Of a stretch of 64,000 bases of DNA, positions 95 to 34,500 are shown in pieces. The position numbers and the translations under genes are program-made. How positions within the stretch are numbered: the first letter of the stretch is position 1; each line of letters starts with the position of its first letter. Below the pieces are notes generated by a model. The model did not search any database, had not been told where the DNA came from, and was given only the letters and a program-made list of their open reading frames with translations. The DNA is from Elusimicrobiales bacterium (GTDB lineage Bacteria > Elusimicrobiota > Elusimicrobia > Elusimicrobiales > UBA9959): positions 2,890 through 66,889 of the forward strand of contig JAVHRY010000138.1 of assembly GCA_036171915.1 (NCBI GenBank), written 5' to 3'.

Positions 95-1207
95 TCACTC
101 AAAAGAAATTTCGTACAGGTAAGGCGCGTTCTTTTTCTCGACCGTAAGCGTTATCCGCTTGCCGCCGGCCAGGGACAGCGCGGGCTGCTCCTTGGCGCCG
201 TAGCAATAGTCCTCTTTGGCACAGGCCGTCAGCTTCTCGGCGGGCCCCCACGGGCCCCAGGGGTAGCGGGCCTGCCTGGCGTACACTGCCGCCCCTTTTT
301 CGTCCATAAACACCGCCAGGTAGCTATTAAGAAATTCGTTGTAGGATACGGAAAAATCCTCCGGCATCCTGTCGAGCACCACGGAGGCCTCCGACAGGTC
401 CGCGGTCCAGCTCCCGGACGCGGCGTCAACGCTGTAATAGGAATATTTTTCCGGGGCGTCCAGCTGGGCGGGCTTCACCCTGGCCAGGGCCGCGCCGTAC
501 TCCCCCGGGGCGGTGATGACCCGGCCATAGACGTAAACCCAGCCGTCCTCGTCCTTAAACAGGGCGGAACCGAAAGCAGGCTCTATATCGTTCCAGAGAA
601 AATAACTGCCGGCTGCGCGCGCTTTCCGGTAGACGCCTTCAGGCTTTTGTGAAACCGCCACGCCCTGGCCTACCCTGAAATAGTCGTAGGGGTCGGCGCC
701 GTAATTATTCATTATGGAATAAAAAACCCAGCACTTTTCCGCGGAGCAAAAACCGGAACGCGGCCAGAAACGGCGGGCCTGGCTGTATTCCCCCGGGCCG
801 CCTGATAGCAGCGGCAGGGGAAGGCCGTTTTCTTCCGCCAGGTAGTTCAGCGCCGGGACCGGGGCCCCGGTGGACACCCCGGCCGAAAAAGCCGCGGCAC
901 CGTCCACAATATTCCAGACCTCGCCCTGGCCGTCTGGCTTGCGCTCGCCGGACATAACGTTGTTCAGGAACCAGATAAGGCGGCCGCCGCCAAGGGCGAC
1001 GGCATAGTTGCCGGCCTGGCCCACTACCGTCCCGGTAGCCGCGGCCTGCGCAAGCAGCGGCATGCCGCCTGAAACTGAGAAAGCCGGCAAGCCGGTTGCC
1101 TGCCGGGCGCAAACCGGCCCGCAAGCCAGCAGCGCGGCCAGCGACATGGCGGCGTTAAACCGTTTTTTTTTAAAATTTTGGCCTGGCCTGCTGCGGGTGG
1201 GGATCAT
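95..1207 (-). CDS. secreted or lipoprotein-like hypothetical protein (possibly DUF4185-like; function unknown)
   Basis: ORF 95..1243. I prefer the internal ATG at 1207, giving MIPTRSRPGQNFKKKRFNAAMSLAALLACGPVCA: a K/R-rich n-region, a hydrophobic core and a possible lipobox LLAC. Composition is protein-like with W/Y/G-rich beta-type segments. The family call is from memory only. Confidence 0.55.
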   Translation of the reverse strand: MIPTRSRPGQNFKKKRFNAAMSLAALLACGPVCARQATGLPAFSVSGGMPLLAQAAATGTVVGQAGNYAVALGGGRLIWFLNNVMSGERKPDGQGEVWNIVDGAAAFSAGVSTGAPVPALNYLAEENGLPLPLLSGGPGEYSQARRFWPRSGFCSAEKCWVFYSIMNNYGADPYDYFRVGQGVAVSQKPEGVYRKARAAGSYFLWNDIEPAFGSALFKDEDGWVYVYGRVITAPGEYGAALARVKPAQLDAPEKYSYYSVDAASGSWTADLSEASVVLDRMPEDFSVSYNEFLNSYLAVFMDEKGAAVYARQARYPWGPWGPAEKLTACAKEDYCYGAKEQPALSLAGGKRITLTVEKKNAPYLYEISFE

Positions 1208-1371
1208 TAGATTGAAACCTTTTACCGTATGCGCGTAAAACACGGGGCCTTGTTTTAACTATAATATAATACAAAACCTACCCCTTGCAACAAACCGGGG
1301 CGCAGGTATTGCTTTTATTCTTGTAACATATTGGGCATTGAATTTAAGCCGCGGTCTGTTAGACTATACTT

Positions 1372-4300
1372 ATGTTTAAAAGGGCAACAACGCTCGCCGC
1401 CTACTGCGCCTGCTTTTTCGCGCTGGCCGCAACCGCGGCGGCTGCCATACCGACGCCGTCCGTTGTATCCACCAGTACGGGCAGCGTTAATTATAACTGG
1501 TCCGGCGGGGTCCAGCCTTATACTGCCGTTATTTCGACCTCCTTTGATTTTTCCTGCCCGGTCTCCAGCGGCTCTGTAGGAACTGCCGCAATAAACTACC
1601 CCGGGCTTAATCCCAATACCACCTACTACTTCCGCGTCAAGGTAACTGCGGACCCCGAAGATCAATATTCCACCCGTTTAACCACCTCCACCTGGGTATA
1701 CGCGCCCACCGCTCTGTACTTCATTCCTAATAATTTTGTGTCCGAATCCTCTTTTACCGCCCTGGCTAGCCTGGGCTGGGATACCGGCAATAACCCGGAC
1801 TGGACTACTTACGAGCTTGAGCAAGCAGACGACAACACCTTCATCCCAGCCCTTACATTGACCAGGAAAACCAATACTACCAATGTGGGCGGCCTGAACG
1901 CCAATACCACCTACTACTTTAAACTGCGTGCGCGCGGCGTATCCGGAACGGTAACCGACTACACTCCGTACATAGATACCGCCACCCTGTCCGTAAAACT
2001 TTCCGGCTTTAGCTCGGTGGTTTCAGATAATGACGCTACCATTTCGTGGGTCAAAGTAAACGATCCCAGCATTAACGCGCTTAAAGCCACAGGCTATCAC
2101 CTGGTACTTTCCACTTCCCAGTCCATGGTCCCTATTACCACCGACCTGGTAAACCCGGACCCGGACACGCCCTCGATACATCTGACCCCGCTTACGGCGA
2201 ACACCACTTATTACTACCGGGCCGGGACCCTCAACACGAACGGGGTTTCAAACATGAGCGACAACCGCTCTTTTACAACGCTCGCGCCGATCCCTGCCGG
2301 GTTGAAGATAATAACGGTAGCCGACGGCTCGGCCAAACTGGGCTGGACCGCCCTGGCGCCCGGGGCCGCGCTGGGCTACAAACTGGAAGCCTCCACGGAT
2401 AATTTCACCGGCCCGGAGATCGCGTTATCCTCAGTTTCATACGGCGTTGCCATAAGCACGCTCTCCATCCCCACCCTGGACCCGAACACCACCTATTATT
2501 TCAGGGTCTCATCTCTTAACAGCGCCGAAGCCCAAAACCACGGGACCTCGCTTTCCACTGTTACGTTAACACTCCCGCTTTCACCTCTAGGCGCGTTATT
2601 ACAGATCTCTCACAACCAGCACAATATGACGGCGAGTTTTGCAGGCGGCCTGTTCCCGGAAACGCCGCAGGCCTTTGCCTGCGAGGGGTATATTTTTGAT
2701 ATTTCCACCGCGGCCTTCGGCTCCGGCGGCACCATACTTTCCTCGGTAACCTACCAGCGGGACCTTAGCGTACTTAATATCTCCGGCCTGGGACCGAACG
2801 TGCTGTATTATCTGCGCATAGGCACTTTAAACTGGGAATTTACCCCAAACTATACTTACCTGGACCCAGCTAGAACAGATGTTCCCGGCCCGCTTTCAAA
2901 CGTGCTGCTCGCTGGCGTCTGGCTCTCCAGCGCCTCTATAAACTTCACCCCCGCGGGCGACGCCGACGGCTATGTGGCGGAAGCCTCCGAGGACCAGCAT
3001 TTTTCCCCGGTATTTAAAAGCTCGGCGACCGCCGCGCCCCTGGCGAGCAACCTGGTTATAACAGGTTTGAACCCCAATACCCAGTACTACTACCGAGCCG
3101 GGGCGCTCTTCAACGGAGCCACGGTGTATATGTACACTATCCCGGAAAGGCAATCAACCCTGGCCACCCCCCTTACCCTGTCGGACCCGCCTTTCGCCGG
3201 GGTGTTTTTCTCAAGCGTCTCGCTTACCTGGGGCGCGCTGCCGGCAAATTCGGCCGCGAGCTACAGGATAGAGGCCGCCGCCACCGCGGCTTTCTCGCCG
3301 GTACTTTTTTCATCTTCCTCCCCCAATATGTCGCTAAGCACGCTTACCTTGACCGGCCTTACCCCCAACACAAGTTATTATTTCCGGGCCGGCACCGTTA
3401 ACCTGGACAATACGCCGAACTATTATTTTACCCCGGCCACGGCCACGCTTGCCGCTATGCCAACCGAACAGCCCTACACCGGGCTCAGGCCTACCTCAAT
3501 TACGCTTAACTGGCTGGCGAACTTAAACCCGGCGGACACGCTTTACATCGCAGAGCTGGACACCGACCCGGGCTTCGGCTCCCCCGCCTCCTCCGCAACC
3601 GTGCTCTCTTCAGCCACCTTCACTGGCCTCATCCCCGCCACGGTATATCACGCGCGGGTAACGGCCTACAACCGCCTCAACAGGATGACCCCGACGGTGC
3701 CTTTCGCAGACATGGCCACCGGGGCCTACGACCCGGTTCTACCCGGTTATACTGATATAGGCGTAACCTCCATGACGGTGAACTGGGGGCCGGGCCTGAA
3801 CCCGGTCAACAATTATTACCGCGCTCAAATATCGTCCAGCACTAACTTTTCAGGAGTGGTGCTTTCCTCTATCACCATCGCCCTGGATGCGGTCTTTAAC
3901 GGGCTGGTCTCCAATGCCAGCTATTACCTGCGTGTTTCCGCCCTTAACTTGACCGGGGTGGCTACGGACCCGGCGGTGCCGTCCGCTGCGCCGGCCCTGA
4001 CGCTGCCCGCCACCGCGTATATGCTGCCGCTGGCGGACGCTTTTTCAAACCCGCTGATAGACGGTTTTACCGTAAGCTGGCTAGCCAACGGGAACTCCTC
4101 ACTTACCATGTACAACGTGCAGGCATCCACCATGGAAGATTTTTCGGTGATAACCTCCAGCCGCGTCGCGCCTGACGTTACCTGCAAATTCTCCGACCTG
4201 CTTATTGACACCACCTACTGGGTGCAGGTGCAGGCAAAAGGCCAGGGCGGCGTGCTTACACCTTATGAGACCGTGGGCTCCACCTGGACCACGCCGTATT

Positions 4301-5001
4301 CCCTGTTAAACTCGGTGGCCCTGCAGGATTCCATAATTTTCCTGGACACCTCTTACGGGCGTATTTCGGTGCACATGCCCGCCGGCTCCGTAGGCGGCTC
4401 GACCCGCCTGACATTGCAGCCGAAAACCCTGTCCAGGGCGTCGGCGAAATCGGCGGTGTCGGAACTTACGCCCACCGGGATAGGCATAGCCATAACATAT
4501 TTTCCCCCGGTGCTGATACTTAACGCCATAACCATTACGCTGCCGTACAGGCAGGCGGATCTGCCTGCGTACACGGATAAATCAAAACTGATACTGGCGC
4601 TGTTTGACGAGACCAACGCGCTCTGGGTGCCGCTGCCGTCCGCCTCGGACATCCCGAATAACCGCGTAATCGGCCAGACCTGGCATCTGTCAACCTTCCA
4701 GATAATGCAGGCGAAATCCGAAAGCGGGCTTGGCGACGTTAAAATTTACCCCAACCCGTACCGCCCGAACTCGGTTGCGGACGTTATGCATTTCACCAAT
4801 ATGACCCCCTACGCCAAGGTCAGGATCTACACTTTTATCGGCGAGCTGGTGCGCGAGATAAAAGCCGACGTGAACGGCATGGCGCACTGGGACGGGCTTA
4901 ACGGCGACAAGCGCAAGGCGGCCAGCGGCGTTTATATAGCTTTCATACAAACCGCGGATAAAAAATCTTCAAAGAGTTTCAAGGTGGCGCTGGAAAGGTA
5001 G
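1372..5001 (+). CDS. large secreted surface protein with ~10 FN3-like repeats and a T9SS-type C-terminal sorting-domain-like tail
   Basis: 1209-aa ORF with signal peptide MFKRATTLAAYCACFFALAATAAAA. Ten modules end in the FN3 F-strand signature L(N/T/D)PNTTYYFR(V/A) (NTTYYFRVKV, NTTYYFKLRA, NTTYYYRAGT, NTQYYYRAGA, NTSYYFRAGT and others). See the C-terminal tail feature below. Confidence 0.85.
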   Translation: MFKRATTLAAYCACFFALAATAAAAIPTPSVVSTSTGSVNYNWSGGVQPYTAVISTSFDFSCPVSSGSVGTAAINYPGLNPNTTYYFRVKVTADPEDQYSTRLTTSTWVYAPTALYFIPNNFVSESSFTALASLGWDTGNNPDWTTYELEQADDNTFIPALTLTRKTNTTNVGGLNANTTYYFKLRARGVSGTVTDYTPYIDTATLSVKLSGFSSVVSDNDATISWVKVNDPSINALKATGYHLVLSTSQSMVPITTDLVNPDPDTPSIHLTPLTANTTYYYRAGTLNTNGVSNMSDNRSFTTLAPIPAGLKIITVADGSAKLGWTALAPGAALGYKLEASTDNFTGPEIALSSVSYGVAISTLSIPTLDPNTTYYFRVSSLNSAEAQNHGTSLSTVTLTLPLSPLGALLQISHNQHNMTASFAGGLFPETPQAFACEGYIFDISTAAFGSGGTILSSVTYQRDLSVLNISGLGPNVLYYLRIGTLNWEFTPNYTYLDPARTDVPGPLSNVLLAGVWLSSASINFTPAGDADGYVAEASEDQHFSPVFKSSATAAPLASNLVITGLNPNTQYYYRAGALFNGATVYMYTIPERQSTLATPLTLSDPPFAGVFFSSVSLTWGALPANSAASYRIEAAATAAFSPVLFSSSSPNMSLSTLTLTGLTPNTSYYFRAGTVNLDNTPNYYFTPATATLAAMPTEQPYTGLRPTSITLNWLANLNPADTLYIAELDTDPGFGSPASSATVLSSATFTGLIPATVYHARVTAYNRLNRMTPTVPFADMATGAYDPVLPGYTDIGVTSMTVNWGPGLNPVNNYYRAQISSSTNFSGVVLSSITIALDAVFNGLVSNASYYLRVSALNLTGVATDPAVPSAAPALTLPATAYMLPLADAFSNPLIDGFTVSWLANGNSSLTMYNVQASTMEDFSVITSSRVAPDVTCKFSDLLIDTTYWVQVQAKGQGGVLTPYETVGSTWTTPYSLLNSVALQDSIIFLDTSYGRISVHMPAGSVGGSTRLTLQPKTLSRASAKSAVSELTPTGIGIAITYFPPVLILNAITITLPYRQADLPAYTDKSKLILALFDETNALWVPLPSASDIPNNRVIGQTWHLSTFQIMQAKSESGLGDVKIYPNPYRPNSVADVMHFTNMTPYAKVRIYTFIGELVREIKADVNGMAHWDGLNGDKRKAASGVYIAFIQTADKKSSKSFKVALER
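4735..4998 (+). other. C-terminal ~85-aa domain resembling the T9SS (Por) sorting CTD / FlgD-Ig-like fold
   Basis: GDVKIYPNPYRPNSVADVMHFTNMTPYAKVRIYTFIGELVREIKADVNGMAHWDGLNGDKRKAASGVYIAFIQTADKKSSKSFKVALER. It matches the pattern YPNP..(hydrophobic strand)..V(K/R)IY...G(E/R)LV......WDG.N......SGVY...(I/L), as in TIGR04183-type tails. Confidence 0.55.
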
Positions 5002-5027
5002 ACCGGCGGGCAAGGGCGCGCACTATT

Positions 5028-6020
5028 ATGACCGAGCGGGCATTGCAAAAAAGCGTTCTTCAAGGCGCGGCTTTAATGCCGGCGCTGCTGCTTTGGGCCC
5101 TTTACTCAGCGCCCGGCTGCGGCGCGCAGGGCTTTGACGCCGCCTCGGCCGGCACCGCTACCGCGCAATTTTTAAAGATAGCTTCGGGCGCGCGCGGGGC
5201 GGCCCTGGGCGAGGCCTATTCCGCGCTGGCCGACGACGCCTTCGCCCTGGACTGGAACCCGGCCGGCCTGATCAACGTAAAGACAAATTCCATGGCCTTC
5301 ATGCACTCTCCCTACCTGGCCGGCACTTCCGTGGATTACTTCGCCTACGCCGAAAGCGCCGGGGAGGTAGGGGCCTGGGGCGTTTCAGGCAAATACATGA
5401 GTTATGGCAAGATCAGCCGGACCGACTCCAGCGGCCTTGAACTGGGCAGTTTCAACCCTTACGACAGCGCCGTTAACGTGGGCTTCGCCTGCTATATAAC
5501 CGGCTTCAATAAAGACCCGGAAGAACGCTTTGTGCTGGGCGGTACCGGTAAATTCGTGCGTTCCAAGATCCTGACTGCCGACAATACCGTTTCGGCCGAT
5601 ATCGGAATTAATATGCCGTACATGTTCGACAACCGTTTCCGCATGAGCCTGGTGGCGCAGAACATAATGGGCACGCTTCGCTACGACAAAGAAGAGGCCC
5701 CTCTCCCCCTTATACTGCGCGCCGGCACGGTGACAAAACTGGCGGATTACCTTAACCTTACCGCCGACGTGATAGCGACACGGGACAACCTGCCGTACCT
5801 GGCCATGGGCGGGGAAGGCAAGATCCCAGTCTATAAGGATATGGATGTTTTTTTGCGGGCCGGTTTCAACACGCGCGCCATCACCGATACCGGCGGCACG
5901 CGCAACGTGGCTTTCGGGCTGGGTATCCGCTACACCGGCTACTGGCTGGATTACGCTTTCTCTCCGTTCGGGGAGCTCGGGACGGTGCACCGCATGTCGG
6001 CGGTTATCAATTTCCAATAA
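5028..6020 (+). CDS. PorV/PorQ-family-like outer-membrane beta-barrel protein
   Basis: 330 aa with a signal peptide, followed by the family-typical N-terminal block GTATAQFLKIASGARGAALGEAYSALADDAFALDWNPAGL. The remainder has alternating beta-strand character and ends in an aromatic residue (...SAVINFQ). It starts 26 nt after the CTD-bearing protein. Confidence 0.7.
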   Translation: MTERALQKSVLQGAALMPALLLWALYSAPGCGAQGFDAASAGTATAQFLKIASGARGAALGEAYSALADDAFALDWNPAGLINVKTNSMAFMHSPYLAGTSVDYFAYAESAGEVGAWGVSGKYMSYGKISRTDSSGLELGSFNPYDSAVNVGFACYITGFNKDPEERFVLGGTGKFVRSKILTADNTVSADIGINMPYMFDNRFRMSLVAQNIMGTLRYDKEEAPLPLILRAGTVTKLADYLNLTADVIATRDNLPYLAMGGEGKIPVYKDMDVFLRAGFNTRAITDTGGTRNVAFGLGIRYTGYWLDYAFSPFGELGTVHRMSAVINFQ

Positions 6021-7284
6021 CAGTCTGCCGGAGGCTGCCGCCGGCAGTTGCCCCCCTTTGCGCCGTAAGCGGAAAGGACAGGACCAGCCACACCCCGGAG
6101 AAAACCAAACCCAGCGCCGGGTAGAAGCCCGGAGCTATAGCGCCCAGCGTCTTCAGGCCGGATATCCAGGCGGCGGTAACGCCCTTGGCGAAGCGGTAGG
6201 TAAAAGCGTCCGCCACCTGCTTGGCGCGGTAGCGGGTATCGTAGGAGAACGGGATATACAGGGTTTCCTTGGACGCCCTGAAGATGGAATAATCCATCCC
6301 CTTGAACAGCAGGAAGGCCGCGGAAGCGACGCCCAGGGTGGGGTACAGGAAGAGCAGCAGGCAGGTAAAGATATGCACCGCAGGGATGGACGTCAGTATG
6401 CCGCGCCGGGGAATATAGCGCAGCAGCAGCGGCGTGAGCAGGAACTGCATTGAGAACGAAAAAATATTCACGCTCATCCAGAAATGCCCCAGGTAGGCCG
6501 TGCGCGCGTCCTTGGTGGGCATGAAGTCCTGCACCAGCTGCGTGAAGCGGAAATCCAGCGCGGTAGCCACCACCTGCGCCGCGAAAATGATGAAAGCTAT
6601 AAAAAGGACCGTGCGGTTCTCTTTAAGGATGCTCAGGTGCAGGGGACCTTTTTTCCCTCCGGCCTCGTCCTCGGCGGGCTTGGGCTCCCCCGCCTTCCCG
6701 TAGCCTATCCAGAAGAGCGCGGCGGCGGGCACGATCGCAAGCGCCGCGAAACCGACGAAGATGTCGGTCCCGAGGCTCACCGCGAAGCGCCCCAGCAGCC
6801 AGCCGCCGGCCAGGGACCCCAGCGCGCCAAGGCCGGCCACAGGCCCGTTAAAGATCTTCCCCTCGTCGTCTTTAAGCACGCTGTTTATAAAAGACCAGTA
6901 TTGCTCGGAAATTATCACTACATAGGACTCCTTGAAGACCAGCAGCAGGAAAGCCAGCCACCGGCCCGCCCAGCCCAGCAGCAGCCAGGCCGCCGCCAGG
7001 AAAACCGCGCTCCCCAGCATCGAGGCCACCATGGCCTTTTTGGCCCCCACGGCGGAAAGCAGCAGGCCGTAGCCGTAGATCATAGCGGCCATCAGAAAGG
7101 GCACGCAGGCGATAGCGTAAGGTTTGGCCGCCGCGCCGAACTGCTCCATAAAAATTGACTCGGCGGGCGAGCGGATGAACTCATAGCCGCAGAAAAGGAA
7201 CATGGCGGAAAGTCCCGCCAGGAAGACCGCCCCCGCCACGTGCCGGCCGCGTTCGGTCTTTAAAGCCGCGAAAAGTGTGCTCAT
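6007..7284 (-). CDS. polytopic membrane transporter, MFS/TLC (nucleotide translocase)-like
   Basis: 425 aa with about 11-12 hydrophobic segments. The block EQYWSFINSVLKDDEGKIFNGPVAGLGALGSLAGG resembles the conserved (Q/E)FWSFAN....EAKR.(F/Y)P..G.GA..G motif of TLC-type carriers. The family assignment is tentative. Confidence 0.55.
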   Translation of the reverse strand: MSTLFAALKTERGRHVAGAVFLAGLSAMFLFCGYEFIRSPAESIFMEQFGAAAKPYAIACVPFLMAAMIYGYGLLLSAVGAKKAMVASMLGSAVFLAAAWLLLGWAGRWLAFLLLVFKESYVVIISEQYWSFINSVLKDDEGKIFNGPVAGLGALGSLAGGWLLGRFAVSLGTDIFVGFAALAIVPAAALFWIGYGKAGEPKPAEDEAGGKKGPLHLSILKENRTVLFIAFIIFAAQVVATALDFRFTQLVQDFMPTKDARTAYLGHFWMSVNIFSFSMQFLLTPLLLRYIPRRGILTSIPAVHIFTCLLLFLYPTLGVASAAFLLFKGMDYSIFRASKETLYIPFSYDTRYRAKQVADAFTYRFAKGVTAAWISGLKTLGAIAPGFYPALGLVFSGVWLVLSFPLTAQRGATAGGSLRQTVIGN

Positions 7285-15352: not shown

Positions 15353-15361
15353 GAAACTTTT

Positions 15362-15735
15362 TTAGACCGCGGACTGTACCCCGAATTCTGTCCGGCCCCT
15401 TGCGGGACCTGGAGGACCATTTATCTGTTGCGGCCCACTCTGCGCCTCCCCCCGGAGGGGGACGGACGGGCTATCCAGGCGCAATTTTGGCCTTGCTTCA
15501 GGAGGGGCTTGCCCTGCCGTCCGCGTTTCCGCGGACGCGGTGCGCTCTTACCGCACCTTTTCACCCTTACCCTTGCGGGCGGTATGTTCTCTGTGGCGCT
15601 ATCCGTCGGCGGGGGATGTAGCCCCCGCCTCCCGGCCTATGGCCGCTTAGCGGCTTTGAACCGGCACCCTGCCCTGTGAAGTTCGGAAGTTCCTCCCCTC
15701 CCTTGCGGGAAGAGCGGCCCTCCGTCCGCGGTCTA
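15362..15735 (-). ncRNA. rnpB: RNase P RNA, bacterial type A
   Basis: The minus strand reads GACCGCGGAC(P1 5')...GGAGGGGAGGAACUUCCGAACUUCACAGGGCAGGGUGCC...GGUAAGGGUGAAAAGGUGCGGUAAGAGCGCACCGCG...GCAAGGCCAAAA...ACAGAAUUCGGGGUACA GUCCGCGGUC(P1 3'). This is collinear with E. coli M1 RNA blocks (GAGGAAAGUCCGGGCUCCAUAGGGCAGGGUGCC; GGUAAGGGUGAAAGGGUGCGGUAAGAGCGCACCGCG; GCAAGGCCAAAU; ACAGAACCCGGCUUA). P4 shows compensatory changes (CCGAA/UUCGG versus CCGGG/CCCGG). Ends are +/-10 nt. Confidence 0.9.
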
Positions 15736-29908: not shown

Positions 29909-31447
29909 TTATTTTACCGCGAAAACGTAATGCGAACTGAGCGGGGCTTTTGCCGAGAAGGGGCAGACCCCGGCCGCGCATTCGCCTTTTATCAGCTCCG
30001 CCTTACGCCAACCCCCGGAAACCCTGTAGAATAAATCCGTTTTTTTGTCCTTTACTTTTTCCTCCGGGAATTTAAAATTCAAATCCAGGCCGCCAGAAAC
30101 GCCGCCGAAGCCGGCGCCCAGCTGCAAGGCGTCAACCTGCGAGTAACCGGCAGGCAGGCCCGCGGCCAGACCCGCCGGGAGCGCGCCCTCTAGCACTTCC
30201 ACGGGGATATCCCCGCCACCGCGCTGGCGGGTCCTGAAAGCCAGCCGGACGGCGGCGGCCTGTTCGGAAACCGCCTCTACGGCGTAATCGATCCCGCGCG
30301 GGGAGATCTTAAGCGCTTTCTTTGACACGGTATAGTTAAAAAGGCTTGCCCCTTCCAGCTTGTCGGCGGCCGGAACGGATTGCTCCGGGCGCACCGGCTG
30401 GGCCGCCGCCGGCACCGGGAACCTGTAAGCCAGGGAAATGCGGTGGGTCACGCCGAGATCCCCGAACGGGGAAAAAGCGTAGTCGAAACTGAACTGGCTG
30501 TAAGCGAAACCAAGACCCGCCGAAAAACCGGAGAAGGCGCCCAACTCATTGCCGTGCTGACGGTAGCGGTAGCCAGCCCTGAGGAAAAGCCGGTTGGCCA
30601 GGGGGTGCTCGAGCCCGAGGGCCAGGGATGGATAATTATCCACGGGTTTATACAGGTCCAGGGCCAACAGAAGGCCCCTTTCATAAAGGCGGTGGCTCAA
30701 GCCGGCCCGGAAAACAAGCGGCAGGTCGAAGCGCCGGCTGTTGAATTTTACGCCGGGGCCCAGGTTCTGCACGGCGAAGCCGCCGGTGAACTGCCGGTCC
30801 AGCCAGGCGAAGTCGTACTGCGCCCCGAGGTCCAGCGCCGCGGTGTTCCCTGAGTCGTTGTCTATGCTCTGCCGGATAAATTTAAGGGCGGCGCCCAGCC
30901 GCAGGTCCCGGCTATAGTTGAACCCATAGGCCCCGGAAAAGGCCAGGTCGTAAGCGCCGAATTTGCCTTCCACCGGGGAGATGGCGCCGAAGGCCTCGTT
31001 GAGCCCGCTTCTGCGCTCAAGGTCACTGGGAGTAGAAAGGTAGTTGAACCCGAGGCCGAACCCGCCGTCCTCAAAACGGCTGCCTTTAAGAAATCCTATT
31101 TTCTCTCCCGGCAGGGTGAAGCCGAAATACTCCTGTTTCAAACCTTCGAAATAGTCGTTATGAGTGAAGGCCAGACCGGTACCAAGCGGCTGGGCAAGCC
31201 CCGCGGGGTTCCAGTATACGGCGTAAGCGTCGTCGGAGAGGGCGGCGTAGGCCCCGCCCATGGCCACAGCGCGCGCGCCCACTCCTATCTTAAGGAAGGA
31301 AGCCGAAGTGGTGCCGGCGGAAGGGTAGATACTGGCCGCGTGAGCCGGAAAGCGTAAAGCGCAAAGAGTAAAGAGCAGGAGCAGCGCCGGCAGCATACGG
31401 CGGCCGGAGCCCCCCCCTACTGTAAACCATCCTGTAACGCTTTTCAT
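29909..31447 (-). CDS. PorV/PorQ-family-like outer-membrane beta-barrel with a ~170-aa C-terminal extension
   Basis: I prefer the ATG at 31447 (AGGAGATGGtcttATG) over the TTG at 31504. It has a signal peptide (...LLLLFTLCALRFPAHA) and then GTTSASFLKIGVGARAVAMGGAYAALSDDAYAVYWNPAGLA, the same family block as ORF 5028. The barrel ends near ...RISLAYRF, followed by an extra domain. Confidence 0.7.
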   Translation of the reverse strand: MKSVTGWFTVGGGSGRRMLPALLLLFTLCALRFPAHAASIYPSAGTTSASFLKIGVGARAVAMGGAYAALSDDAYAVYWNPAGLAQPLGTGLAFTHNDYFEGLKQEYFGFTLPGEKIGFLKGSRFEDGGFGLGFNYLSTPSDLERRSGLNEAFGAISPVEGKFGAYDLAFSGAYGFNYSRDLRLGAALKFIRQSIDNDSGNTAALDLGAQYDFAWLDRQFTGGFAVQNLGPGVKFNSRRFDLPLVFRAGLSHRLYERGLLLALDLYKPVDNYPSLALGLEHPLANRLFLRAGYRYRQHGNELGAFSGFSAGLGFAYSQFSFDYAFSPFGDLGVTHRISLAYRFPVPAAAQPVRPEQSVPAADKLEGASLFNYTVSKKALKISPRGIDYAVEAVSEQAAAVRLAFRTRQRGGGDIPVEVLEGALPAGLAAGLPAGYSQVDALQLGAGFGGVSGGLDLNFKFPEEKVKDKKTDLFYRVSGGWRKAELIKGECAAGVCPFSAKAPLSSHYVFAVK

Positions 31448-31500: not shown

Positions 31501-34500
31501 TCAATGTATTATCGCCAGTTTCTTCGTTACGGCCTTGGTGCCGGAGGCGCTCTTGGCCTCAAGGCGGTACACGTAAACTCCGCTGGCCACGTTTTTCACA
31601 TGCCAGCTTACCTCTGAAGTACCGCCGGCGTCGGCAAGGCCCACGGTTTTCTCAAGCCTGGCCACTTTTTCCCCGGCCACGTCATAGACGTCTATGGTCA
31701 CCGCGGCCTGGTAGTTCACCCTGAACTTGAAGGTGAGATAGTCGCCTTTCGCCGGGTTAGGATAGGTATAGACCTCTTCGGATTCGAATAAGGCTCCTGA
31801 AGGCACATAGCCCATCAGAGAATACGTGGAAAAATGGGCAACCTCGGCGCTTACCTTGCGCAGGCCCGGCAGCACCCGGGAGCTGGCGACTCGCGTCCAG
31901 CGCTGCCCCTCAAGCAGGTACATGCGCAGGCTTTCCTCCGGCATAGAGACGATTTCGGCCGGGGTATAAGGCAGGGAGATAACTGCGTTCTTGAGCAGGT
32001 GGGTTCCGGTTTTTTCAAACTTCACCTCATATATTATCCCGGTAGGCTTCGCCCCCCCGGTGTCCGCGCTGGCGCTCGCGGAAGTCCCGAAGAAGTCGGT
32101 CTTTTCCCTGCGCACGATGAGTATGCTGTCGCTATCGGAGGCGGCATCCGGGGGAATGCTTACCTCCGCCCCGTCCGGCAGCCTGTCCGTTCCACCGGTG
32201 GATTTATCGAGGAAACGCCAGTTGTCCGCGGAGATTCCCCAGGCCTCCGCCGTCATGGTCGACAGGTTGGTGCTGTCAAAAGCCGCCACGGCGTAGTAAA
32301 ACTTAAGGTTCTCCGGGGCGCCCGTATCCACATAGACCGCGGTACCGGCCGGGACCTCGGCATAAGGAGTCCCGGAGGCGGAAATGCCGGAGGAGGCGGA
32401 ACGGAATATTTTATATCCGTAGACGTCGCGCGCCCCCGCGTAGTCGTCAAAAGACAGTCCCCAGTTCAGCACCAGCGCCCCCCCGTGGTCGCCGGGTTTG
32501 TCGGAAACCACCAGGTCCGAAGGGGCGGCGGGCGGCATATAGTCGGGGGTAGCATAAGCGGAAACGGAGGAGGAAGCGGCGGAATAGCTGGGCTTCCCGT
32601 CGTCATAGGCCTCGACCATAAGATAATAGGTGACGCCGCCGAAAAGGCGGGAAACCGCCTCTCGCTCCGGAGTGCCGTACGGCCCCGCGACTGCGCGGCT
32701 GCTTTTCCAGACCCGCCCCGAAGCCCAAACCGAAGCGGAGTAGGTAGCGTAGCGTATCTCGTAGCCGGAGGCCGCCCCGACTATGCCGTCGTCGCCGGTG
32801 GCCGTCCAGGCCAGGTCCACGCTGCCCGCGGCCGCCCCGGGCGCGGCGGAGAGGCCGGTCACGGCCGCCGGGGGTATAATATCGGCGGACGGGTTATTAT
32901 CCGCAGAAACCGCGGAGGCCTGCCCGGAAAGGACCGACTCGCTGTAGCCGTCAAAGGCGCTCACGCCGTAGGTGAAGCGGGAGCCGGTAGCCGCGGCCGC
33001 GTCGAGATAGGTGAGGGACGGCGTGCTGACCTGCGCCAGGTAAGCAAGGCCGCCGCCGTAGGGCGCGCGGTAGACGCGGTAAGCCGTTACCCAGGCGGAA
33101 GGCGAGGCGGCCCAGTTAAGAAGTATCTTGTTGCCGCTGTCCCCCGGGTTATCGGCCGCGTTAAGCCCGGCAGGGGGCTGGGGGAGATGATTAACCCTTA
33201 CCACGTTCCTGGCCTCGGCCAGGTGTCCTGACGGCGAAGACTCCGTAGCCCTGAGGCGCAGGGTATAAAGCCCGTTCGGCAGATCCGACACTTTCCAGTT
33301 CCCAAGCGGCCCGCCTGAGATCTCAGAGACCGCGGGGCTGGAGAACACGAGGGTCCAGCCGCCGGGATTTTCTCCCGCCCCGTAATCCAGCGTATAACCG
33401 GTAAGGAAGGAATCGTCCTTAAGGGAGCCGCTGACGGGAACCGTCCCGTCGACCAGGCCATAGTTCCCCGGAGAGGATATAGCCGTTATGAACGCGGCCT
33501 TATACCCTATAATGCTGCCGCCCATTACCCCGACATAGACGAACCCGTTCGAAACCGCCGGAGAAGAATAGGCCGAGGAGGAGACCGGGATCTCCTGGAG
33601 CTGCGCCCCGGAAGAGCTTACGGCCACTACGCGGGCGTCCACCGTGCCAAGGTACATCACCTCGTTGGCCATGGCTGGCGAAGAAACCAGGCCGAATGAA
33701 ACGGTATTACCGGCAGTAGGAGAGCTGAAAATCAGGTCGTCCATAGAAGAGGGGTCGAAAGCGTAGATGGTATGCGGCAGCGAACCGGCGCCGGCGAAGA
33801 CGGCATAGGGCGAAACTACCGGAGAGGTAACCTCGTTCTCGCTGGCCCTCGGGTTAGAATATATATCCAGGATCTTGGCAAAAGGGGAACTGGCGGCGGC
33901 CAGGGAACCGTCCGAAGAGAGCAGGCGCAGGATCTTGCGCTCGTCGTGTCCGGGCAGGGCGTAAAGGGACCCGCCAAGGACCGCGGCAGCGTTGGGACCA
34001 AAACTGCCTATCGTCTGAGAATAACCCGGAGTTCCCCACCGGTCCTTCCCGCTGACCGCGTCCACGGCGTAAAGCCTGCCGTCGTTAGAGCCGAAATAGA
34101 TATATACGCCGTCGGTGGAGGGAGCGGATTCCACGGGCTGGGCGGCCTGCTTTTCCCAGAGCAGCGCGCCGGTGGCGGCGCTGAAAGCCCTGAGCTTTTT
34201 AACCGGGGCGCCGCAGCCCGCGTAAACGCGCCCGTTAAAAGCCAGCGGGCTTGAAGCCGAGGGCGCGCCGAGTTCGGCCTGCCAGAGCAGGGCCCCGGTG
34301 AGCCGGTTAAAAGCGTAAAGCCTGGAATCACGGCCGGCCGCGAAAACGCGGTCCTCTAAAACCGCGGGAGAGGCGTCCACCCAGCCGTCGGTAGAGTAAT
34401 CCCAGATCAGTTCCCCGGTGAGGGCGTTCAGCGCGTAAATGCTGCCTGAGCGGGCGGTGGCATAAACTATCCCGCCATAAACCACCGGGCCGGACACCAC

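Follow-up and report, generated by a model that had tools for sequence, protein, structure and literature searches.

The 64,000-nucleotide stretch of DNA analysed here (the window), from a contig of an Elusimicrobiales bacterium, carries two cassettes in which a gene for a large secreted protein, hereafter the cargo, is followed by a gene for a predicted outer-membrane beta-barrel (Table 1). Both cassettes had been picked out in an initial annotation, and the motifs quoted there for the cargo tails and the barrel openings (AQFLKIASGARGAALGEAYSALADDAFALDWNPAGL and ASFLKIGVGARAVAMGGAYAALSDDAYAVYWNPAGL for barrels 1 and 2, respectively) are present in the sequence. Cargo 1 begins with a signal-peptide-like N-terminus, followed by FN3 repeats (fn3, 147 bits over five stretches in Pfam), a pre-CTD beta-sandwich domain and a C-terminal beta-sandwich domain (CTD), and its orthologues from five Elusimicrobia MAGs measure 1204-1222 aa. 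A gap of 26 nt without terminator-like sites separates the cargo 1 gene from barrel 1 downstream of it, and promoter and terminator scans around this pair yielded nothing above shuffled expectation.

The second cassette lies on the opposite strand, with cargo 2 directly downstream of a giant gene encoding 9,403 aa. Whereas the initial annotation described both cargos as rich in FN3, this was borne out for cargo 1 only; the N-terminal part of cargo 2 is a PQQ/BamB-like beta-propeller (PQQ_2, 110 bits), succeeded by repeats, a pre-CTD domain and a type A CTD, with no Pfam match at E<=0.1 across residues ~466-900. Barrel 2 most likely starts at the ATG at 31447, behind an AGGAG and 53 nt past the cargo 2 stop, and its barrel part is followed by a C-terminal extension of ~167 aa with no Pfam match. 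Kinship between this extension and the pre-CTD domain of the cargos was considered and rejected, as our HMM of that domain, which is all-beta in the AF2 model of cargo 1 and common to six of the 14 CTD proteins of the genome, matched those six cargo ORFs only. Rfam gave no match, c-di-GMP riboswitches included, in the vicinity of either cassette.

Table 1. Features of the two cargo-barrel cassettes, with positions in the window
Feature	Position	Strand	Description	Basis
Cargo 1	1372-5001	+	1209 aa secreted FN3-array protein	ORF and translation
Pre-CTD beta-sandwich domain of cargo 1	4372-4713	+	Residues 1001-1114	Own alignment and HMM
CTD of cargo 1	4732-4998	+	PorZ-like	PorZ model, genome-specific CTD HMM, Foldseek
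Barrel 1	5028-6020	+	330 aa PorV/PorQ-family predicted outer-membrane beta-barrel	NF033709
Cargo 2	34716-31501	-	1071 aa secreted protein	PQQ_2, Por_Secre_tail, TIGR04183
CTD of cargo 2	31504-31767	-	Type A	TIGR04183 and PF18962, above cut-off
Barrel 2	31447-29909	-	512 aa PorV/PorQ-family barrel	NF033709
Barrel part of barrel 2	~30419-31312	-		
C-terminal extension of barrel 2	29912-30418	-		
Giant gene upstream of cargo 2	34779-62990			

The tail of cargo 2 exceeded the cut-offs of both TIGR04183 (32.2 bits, cut-off 23) and Por_Secre_tail (PF18962; 39.5 bits, cut-off 27) and was matched by our own CTD HMM at 4.8e-21. For cargo 1 the corresponding scores were 21.8 bits, just under the TIGR04183 cut-off, and 16.6 bits for PF18962, so that the CTD proposed for both proteins was confirmed by standard profiles in cargo 2 and narrowly missed in cargo 1. 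The cargo 1 tail was matched by the PorZ model at 7.6e-15 and by the genome-specific CTD HMM at 6e-30, and PorZ (5m11) was the sole PDB match of its CTD model at E<=1e-3 in Foldseek. Across the 14 tails of the genome the consensus reads YPNP...IYT..GELVR...WDG.N..G...ASGVY; the best PDB matches of the CTD profile were PorZ (2.9e-9) and PorU (2.1e-7), followed by the type A CTDs of Flavobacterium johnsoniae, and some tails also matched the CHU_C model weakly.

Both barrels span positions 1-326 of the 326 in NF033709, with 159.3 bits for barrel 1 and 171.2 bits for barrel 2 against a cut-off of 90, in agreement with the PorV/PorQ assignment originally made from the sequence alone. Scores were higher to the PorQ model (NF033711; 108.7 and 93.5 bits) than to the PorV model (NF033710; 74.9 and 69.2 bits) and fell below the equivalog cut-offs of both (220 and 250 bits, respectively). 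On these profile scores, both barrels are PorV/PorQ family members and orthologues of neither PorV nor PorQ. The PorP/SprF model (TIGR03519, cut-off 90.55) gave 26.6 bits for barrel 2 and no listed match for barrel 1. A sequence search of the PDB with barrel 1 retrieved PorV (6h3i_F, 1.9e-5), and its AF2 model, of moderate confidence (pLDDT 70, pTM 0.71), is an all-beta barrel closest in Foldseek to 8gl6_F, a PorV within a substrate-bound translocon (E 2.6e-9, TM 0.58/0.52), with FadL/TodX next. Approximately 10 genes of the genome lie above the NF033709 cut-off. The model also has matches in Bacteroides thetaiotaomicron, an organism in which we know of no T9SS.

Pairing of cargo and barrel is the rule in this genome and not a product of chance. 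The next gene is a barrel for 11 of the 14 CTD genes, at distances of -4 to 35 nt downstream, or 332 nt in one case (C115), an outcome with P ~3e-21 given ~17 barrel genes among ~2,100 genes, the gene count being our own estimate. In five other Elusimicrobiota genomes, 46 of 69 CTD matches were paired (14/19, 17/28, 1/1, 10/13 and 4/8). In genome G057, three further pairs are adjacent with the gene order inverted, 4-12 nt apart, and in a gut-type genome whose only CTD protein is a metalloprotease, a barrel follows after 1 nt. Searching with the single barrel protein as query returned only close orthologues, and pair 1 is conserved as a syntenic unit in five named MAGs. That both partners are envelope genes, and nothing more, could be read as incidental adjacency of unrelated genes, a reading with negligible probability that is already refuted by the counts in the genome, by the recurrence elsewhere in the phylum, with either gene first and gaps ranging from -4 to 35 nt, and by the synteny of pair 1. 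Pairing is not obligatory, since three CTD proteins of the genome, one of them a subtilase, have no neighbouring barrel and five or six barrels do not adjoin a CTD gene. The dedicated pairing suggested from two instances within the window therefore extends to the genome at large, where profile searches support the family assignments and no complete T9SS with many unpaired cargos was found. We found no published description of such a cassette of a cargo and its private barrel.

Paired cargos comprise FN3 arrays, propellers, lectin, BNR and TIG proteins and proteases, including a papain-like protease and a metalloprotease, and the CTD is the sole element common to their genes. Among six pair 1 orthologues the mean identity was 84% for the CTD and 82% for the barrel, compared to 54% for the FN3 body. 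With FadL/TodX as the next-best fold matches behind PorV, and hydrolases among the cargos, each cassette might instead be an uptake pair, in which a FadL-like channel takes up a small hydrophobic product that the surface protein has captured or set free, and the tail has no connection with the barrel. We regard this as improbable, because the cargos are functionally unrelated to one another, the one element they share is a CTD whose conservation tracks that of the barrel, and the paralogue that truly resembles FadL (C113) does not adjoin any CTD gene.

Absence of further T9SS core genes, noted at first for the window, was upheld across the genome for GldK, GldM and the catalytic part of PorU, none of which were found by profile searches, and is qualified by a short, remote SprA/Sov homologue encoded on another contig. 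Among 151 Elusimicrobiota genomes, no GldK was detected above cut-off (partial matches only, to a generic sulfatase-modifying domain) and no PorU, matches to the PorU model being limited to the C-terminal (CTD) region apart from a single genome with a partial C25-like match. GldL, GldM and GldN likewise gave 0/151 above cut-off, with models that matched no control genome either. This is in line with TXSScan, which reported T9SS in Bacteroidetes only (PMC4793230). A clostripain (C11) gene beside an orphan barrel was evaluated as a PorU-like sortase and rejected as a general solution, C11 being absent from three of five cassette-bearing genomes.

The SprA-like gene matched TIGR04189 at E 2e-34, its 118 bits falling short of the equivalog cut-off (200), and encodes a single-copy protein of ~1,800 residues, ~600 shorter than SprA. 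Its family profile retrieved SprA only from the whole PDB (1e-17); the ORF as a single sequence gave no PDB match, and Pfam SprA_N was matched in one of 12 family members. The gene was present in 141 of the 151 Elusimicrobiota genomes, occurring together with barrels in 140, with both absent in six; this co-loss is mostly confined to one genus of reduced genomes. The cultivable Elusimicrobium minutum has one SprA-like gene alongside one or two barrels. Its neighbours include comF in 7/7 loci and lptF/lptG in 5/7, and in none of the loci examined did it lie beside a cassette, a neighbourhood equally compatible with a general envelope role and with a translocon role of the SprA-like protein. The lptF/lptG neighbours, together with the lack of a PF04453 match, raised the SprA-like barrel as a candidate substitute for LptD, which was rejected on finding a divergent 693-aa LptD homologue (C92:74450-76531).

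This genomic setting bears on a further reading, in which the cassettes act as split autotransporters or two-partner-like systems, the adjacent barrel itself exporting its cargo with the aid of BAM, and the SprA-like protein serves the envelope in some other way. Type V systems follow this gene logic of one barrel per cargo, synteny places the SprA-like gene with lptF/lptG and comF rather than with cassettes, and no motor was found. The barrels, however, are compact and of FadL/PorV type (~290 residues), carry a conserved plug-like segment at the N-terminus, show no POTRA or Omp85 features and would have to pass cargos as long as 9,582 residues, whose tails are modelled as a folded PorZ-like beta-sandwich with no pore-threading linker. 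With a separate LptD homologue encoded, LPS export also does not require the SprA-like barrel. We consider export by the private barrels rather unlikely.

Instead, with a probability of roughly 55%, we infer that each barrel collects and permanently holds the uncleaved tail of its own cargo in the manner of PorQ and PorZ, with export via the SprA-like pore. A cassette would thus pair a surface protein exported by Sec with an outer-membrane partner of its own, the single operon yielding both in matched amounts. The compact PorV/PorQ/FadL-type barrel would insert into the outer membrane and bind the C-terminal beta-sandwich domain of its cargo, the tail probably being left uncut because no PorU-type sortase was found, so that its private barrel would keep the cargo anchored at the cell surface. 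To cross the outer membrane, the cargos would most likely use the one short SprA/Sov-like barrel of the phylum and be collected there by their private barrels, with neither a PorK/N ring nor a PorL/M motor involved.

In Porphyromonas gingivalis, two PorV/PorQ-family barrels, PorQ and PorV, each retain a surface protein (PorZ and PorU, respectively) through a C-terminal beta-sandwich that is not cleaved, and this proposal would extend that relation to nearly all CTD proteins of the cell. Consistent with such a relation, the barrels described here score higher as PorQ than as PorV and the tails are nearest to PorZ and PorU. In P. gingivalis, PorQ-PorZ is one special pair within a machine of ~20 proteins, whereas here the arrangement is the rule for 11/14 CTD proteins, in the form of predicted two-gene operons, in a phylum without above-cut-off matches to the PorK/L/M/N and PorU models. 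To our knowledge, porQ and porZ of P. gingivalis are not adjacent genes. PorQ has been proposed to collect PorZ from the Sov translocon directly, independent of PorV and PorU, with the tail remaining uncleaved (PMC10947112, PMC5562754).

Whether each barrel would recognize its own cargo only is informed by the contrast between orthologues and paralogues. All paralogues share the barrel N-terminal motif and the CTD core (YPNP, IY..G, W, ASGVY), three CTD proteins do without a neighbouring barrel, and CTD and barrel distances correlate only weakly within the genome (mirror-tree/Mantel, r 0.36-0.42, p 0.02-0.05). We did not count this correlation toward specificity; co-duplication of cassettes would yield the same signal without any binding specificity. 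These observations would suit a generic shuttle with matched dosage, in which PorV-like carriers are interchangeable and are supplied one per cargo molecule because a carrier is never recycled without a sortase, with no pair-specific recognition. Paralogous barrels are, however, only 24-36% identical within the genome (CTDs, 21-45%), yet barrels are ~82% identical within the orthologue group, in step with the CTD, and a loop segment of the barrel (residues 152-171) is conserved among orthologues (0.9) but variable among paralogues (0.24-0.35). Linked PorP/SprF barrels of Flavobacterium are also specific to their own type B cargo (PMC12618676). Interchangeable carriers are thus an unlikely explanation, and the conservation pattern is more suggestive of pair-specific recognition of the CTD by its neighbouring barrel.

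The contrast drawn initially with Bacteroidota, where PorV is shared among cargos, remains valid for PorV itself and is tempered by precedents for cargo-linked barrels in type B PorP/SprF systems and in PorZ-PorQ (PMC12618676, PMC9143113, PMC10947112). Type B CTD cargos, such as SprB with SprF and others in F. johnsoniae and PG1035 with PorP in P. gingivalis, have a linked cognate PorP/SprF barrel gene that is needed for secretion and serves as surface anchor (PMC12618676, PMC9143113). The Elusimicrobiota cassettes resemble these in linking a per-cargo barrel gene to its substrate, and differ in that the barrels belong to the PorV/PorQ family (NF033709) rather than PorP/SprF, the cargos end in type A or PorZ-like tails instead of type B ones, and the known system runs inside a complete T9SS. 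Counterparts of all components of the F. johnsoniae SprA-PorV-substrate translocon (6H3I, 8GL6), a giant SprA-type barrel, a PorV-type barrel and a CTD substrate, are encoded in the genome, although the SprA-like protein has ~1,800 residues compared to 2,403 and many private barrels take the place of one shared PorV. Outside T9SS, the 14-stranded FadL-like barrel BamG of the B. thetaiotaomicron BAM complex binds its surface-exposed partner BamH via extracellular loops (PMC12578637). Within BAM, BamG is a fixed component, and BamH has no CTD-type tail in that description (PMC12578637), while no link to BamA was found for the barrels reported here. A role for cognate PorV-like barrels in protecting CTDs has been put forward as a hypothesis in a review (PMC10202324).

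The T9SS is taught as a speciality of Bacteroidota (FCB), comprising ~20 proteins, in which PorV alone shuttles all type A cargo and a proton-driven motor is indispensable. The cassette set looks like a stripped-down relative of this system, in a phylum outside FCB with only three recognizable ingredients, the tail, the barrel and the short SprA-like pore. More tentatively, one short SprA-like pore serving many private PorQ-like barrels, each extracting and permanently anchoring its own CTD protein, could represent the ancestral core of the Bacteroidota machine. If true, CTD-dependent export has no intrinsic need for the PorKLMN motor-ring, and Elusimicrobiota would offer a natural minimal system for learning what the CTD and PorV-type barrel do alone and what the motor is needed for. 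With dozens of diverged CTD-barrel pairs per genome, a code of recognition specificity becomes approachable, and the arrangement would explain how these bacteria could mount many giant surface proteins. The analysis also flags the SprA-like protein, a nearly universal predicted outer-membrane protein of the phylum, which public annotation lists merely as hypothetical.

Pairing of a cargo gene bearing a type-IX-secretion-style C-terminal tail (CTD) with an adjoining PorV/PorQ-family barrel gene is the rule at genome and phylum level. Searching all ORFs of the assembly that contains the window (2.26 Mb, 144 contigs, 89% complete) with HMMs from its own barrels and tails, we recovered 14 CTD-bearing and 17 barrel-like ORFs, one of which (contig C113) resembles true FadL. 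The two-gene cassette noted twice in the initial annotation proved to recur throughout the genome: 11 of its 14 CTD ORFs have a barrel as downstream neighbour on their own strand, spaced -4 to 35 nt away (332 nt on contig C115). Were such adjacency due to chance, a simple binomial estimate puts its probability at P ~3e-21. Paired cargos comprised an FN3 array, a propeller, a papain-like protease with a lectin domain, a sortilin/BNR propeller, TIG and FlgD-Ig repeats, and included giants of 1,900-9,582 residues; they are functionally unrelated, with the tail as common element. Across five further genomes of the phylum, picked for completeness and distance, a barrel lay within 700 nt downstream of 14/19, 17/28, 1/1, 10/13 and 4/8 CTD matches. 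The last of these genomes (G057) holds three more pairs in inverted order, barrel first, with gaps of 4-12 nt; these belong to one distant family (L024-L026, contig C1, about 428-431 kb, 1013-1017 kb and 1308-1311 kb), and one of them combines a 713-aa barrel ORF with a CTD protein just 145 aa long. The lone CTD protein of the gut-type 1.5 Mb genome among the five (G015) is a 1171-aa HExxH metalloprotease with a barrel 1 nt downstream (L023:2570-7190, contig C2), making this pair a candidate minimal system for experiments.

Three of the 14 CTD proteins have no barrel. One, encoded at L016:3759-5375 (-) on contig C88, is an S8 subtilase whose propeptide is fervidolysin-like; it may process tails or be an enzyme that is released, and downstream of it lie DUF192 and then a type II/IV secretion ATPase (GspE/PilB-type). 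A clostripain-family (C11) peptidase with no CTD is encoded 164 nt ahead of a PorV/PorQ-family barrel that is otherwise an orphan (L018:2044-3291 and 3456-4490; C116:19043-21489), an adjacency found also in another Elusimicrobiota genome (G012:C105). C11 belongs to clan CD, as does the C25 family of PorU. C11 copies number 6-23 in this genus, and three more distant genomes have none.

Coordinates of the two cassettes of the window and of the SprA-like ORF of the same assembly
Feature	Coordinates	Strand	Description
Cargo 1	1372-5001	+	1209 residues; signal-peptide-like N-terminus, FN3 array, two-part C-terminal module
Barrel 1	5028-6020	+	330-residue ORF, starting 26 nt past cargo 1
Cargo 2	34716-31501	-	PQQ/BamB-like beta-propeller protein
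Barrel 2	31447-29909	-	ATG at 31447 most likely start, preceded by AGGAG; 53 nt past cargo 2 stop
SprA-like ORF	C45:10217-15232		At least 1,671 residues, running off the contig; SprA model

Genes on the opposite strand, for a DUF4185 protein and an MFS-type transporter (95-1243 (-) and 6007-7284 (-)), flank pair 1, which is therefore a stand-alone two-gene unit, with no terminator-like site in the 26-nt gap. The tail and barrel-opening motifs first read from the sequence were both found in the translated ORFs. The description of both cargos as FN3-rich is borne out for cargo 1 only (Pfam fn3, 147 bits, five stretches); cargo 2 is a propeller protein whose middle part has zero Pfam matches. Assignment of the tails as CTDs was upheld by profile for cargo 2, which passes TIGR04183 and PF18962; cargo 1 falls slightly below both cut-offs and is matched by the C-terminal part of the PorZ model (7.6e-15). 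A profile of all 14 tails ranked PorZ first in the PDB (5m11, 2.9e-9), followed by PorU (6za2, 2.1e-7), FlgD Ig-like domains and those F. johnsoniae type A CTDs that are found in translocon complexes. For the final 209 residues of cargo 1, two beta-sandwiches are predicted (pLDDT 79), and Foldseek returned PorZ alone at E<=1e-3; a pre-CTD domain is common to six of the paired cargos.

The PorV-type assignment stands, as both window barrels cover the NCBIfam PorV/PorQ family model end to end (159 and 171 bits for barrels 1 and 2; cut-off 90), each scoring higher for PorQ than for PorV and below both equivalog cut-offs. By sequence, the sole relevant solved structure for barrel 1 is PorV (6h3i_F). 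Rival readings take the barrel for a FadL-type uptake channel or a type-V-like exporter. AlphaFold2 predicted barrel 1 as a closed beta-barrel (25 sequences, pLDDT 70, pTM 0.71), for which the best Foldseek match was PorV of a substrate-bound translocon (8gl6_F), then FadL and TodX. Several barrels carry C-terminal extensions that are presumably periplasmic (L011:1927-3348 (-), L019:2790-4109, L020:3152-4603). The 167-aa extension of barrel 2 (29912-30418) gave no match; one extension matches Pfam LysM after a coiled-coil-like linker, the L019 barrel has LysM-like sequence by eye without a Pfam match, and the L020 barrel has a CsgG-like segment.

Close relatives of barrel 1 occur in the MAGs Elusimicrobia bacterium GWA2_61_42 and GWC2_64_44 and in Elusimicrobiales bacteria, and the pair is adjacent in 5/5 relative loci (cargo 1204-1222 residues, barrel 327 residues, gap 14-27 nt). 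Mean pairwise identity across six species is 54% for the FN3 body, 72% for the pre-CTD domain, 84% for the CTD and 82% for the mature barrel, and paralogues within one genome share 21-45% (CTD) and 24-36% (barrel). Hence each tail-barrel pair is old, diverged from other pairs and under similar constraint, while the displayed part of the protein drifts. Orthologues keep barrel residues 152-171, a long loop in the model, which differ from paralogue to paralogue; the N-terminal FLK..GAR...NPAGL motif is preserved in either comparison. Such a pattern of conservation hints at recognition of every tail by the barrel paired with it; a rival reading holds that the barrels are a non-specific, dosage-matched shuttle. 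CTD and barrel distances inside the window's genome correlated weakly and positively (Mantel r 0.36-0.42, p 0.02-0.05), a result we do not lean on.

Searches of the window's genome found no GldK or GldM, and the PorU model matched only through its C-terminal CTD part. Among 151 genomes of the phylum (137 high quality, 62 genera), GldM and GldN gave no match and GldL none over cut-off, negatives that lack a positive control because these models matched none of the control genomes; GldK gave only partial matches, to a generic sulfatase-modifying-enzyme domain, and PorU matched only in the CTD region. The GldL, GldM and GldN negatives agree with the TXSScan survey, in which T9SS was confined to Bacteroidetes (PMC4793230). 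We class the cassette as a T9SS-type tail and a PorV-type barrel, privately paired, with no motor, ring or sortase detected. The barrels already bear the name 'PorV/PorQ family protein' in public annotation; we found no paper linking Elusimicrobia with type IX secretion and none on per-cargo PorV/PorQ barrels.

A short SprA-like ORF is encoded in the same genome (E 2e-34, 118 bits, under the equivalog cut-off of 200). Its relatives, of about 1,790 residues and 49-77% identity, are all 'hypothetical protein' in Elusimicrobia records, and a profile of twelve matched F. johnsoniae SprA alone in the whole PDB (1e-17). One copy per genome was present in 141/151 genomes (60/62 genera) and barrels in 144/151; both were present in 140 and both absent in six. 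This co-occurrence is consistent with a functional link and is no proof of one, because most of the double negatives come from a single genus whose genomes are very small. The gene adjoined no cassette in the loci examined; it is followed by a comF-like phosphoribosyltransferase gene in 7/7 loci (L001, L027-L032) and lies beside lptF/lptG in 5/7 across the phylum, a neighbourhood from which it may have a general envelope role. A role as LptD substitute was ruled out by a separate, divergent LptD homologue (693 aa, C92:74450-76531 (-)), missed by Pfam PF04453 and recovered only with a profile built on LptD-like ORFs that are weakly detected in other members of the Elusimicrobiota.

The most economical reading is a generalised form of the PorQ-PorZ arrangement. 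The PorZ and PorU proteins of P. gingivalis retain their CTDs and are held uncleaved on PorQ and PorV (PMC10947112; PMC5562754), and here such holding would extend to CTD cargos generally, each barrel keeping its own cargo's retained tail. PorQ has been proposed to take PorZ over from Sov with no need of PorV or PorU (PMC10947112), a review has suggested that cognate PorV-like barrels shield the CTD from cleavage (PMC10202324), and Flavobacterium type B cargo needs linked, cognate PorP/SprF barrels (PMC12618676; PMC9143113). We infer CTD-barrel binding, tail retention, pair specificity and use of the SprA-like pore; with no sortase to free the barrel, one barrel would be spent per cargo molecule, which would explain the operon arrangement. 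Elsewhere in the window, a full-length bacterial class A RNase P RNA lies at 15361-15733 (-) (RF00010, 203 bits).
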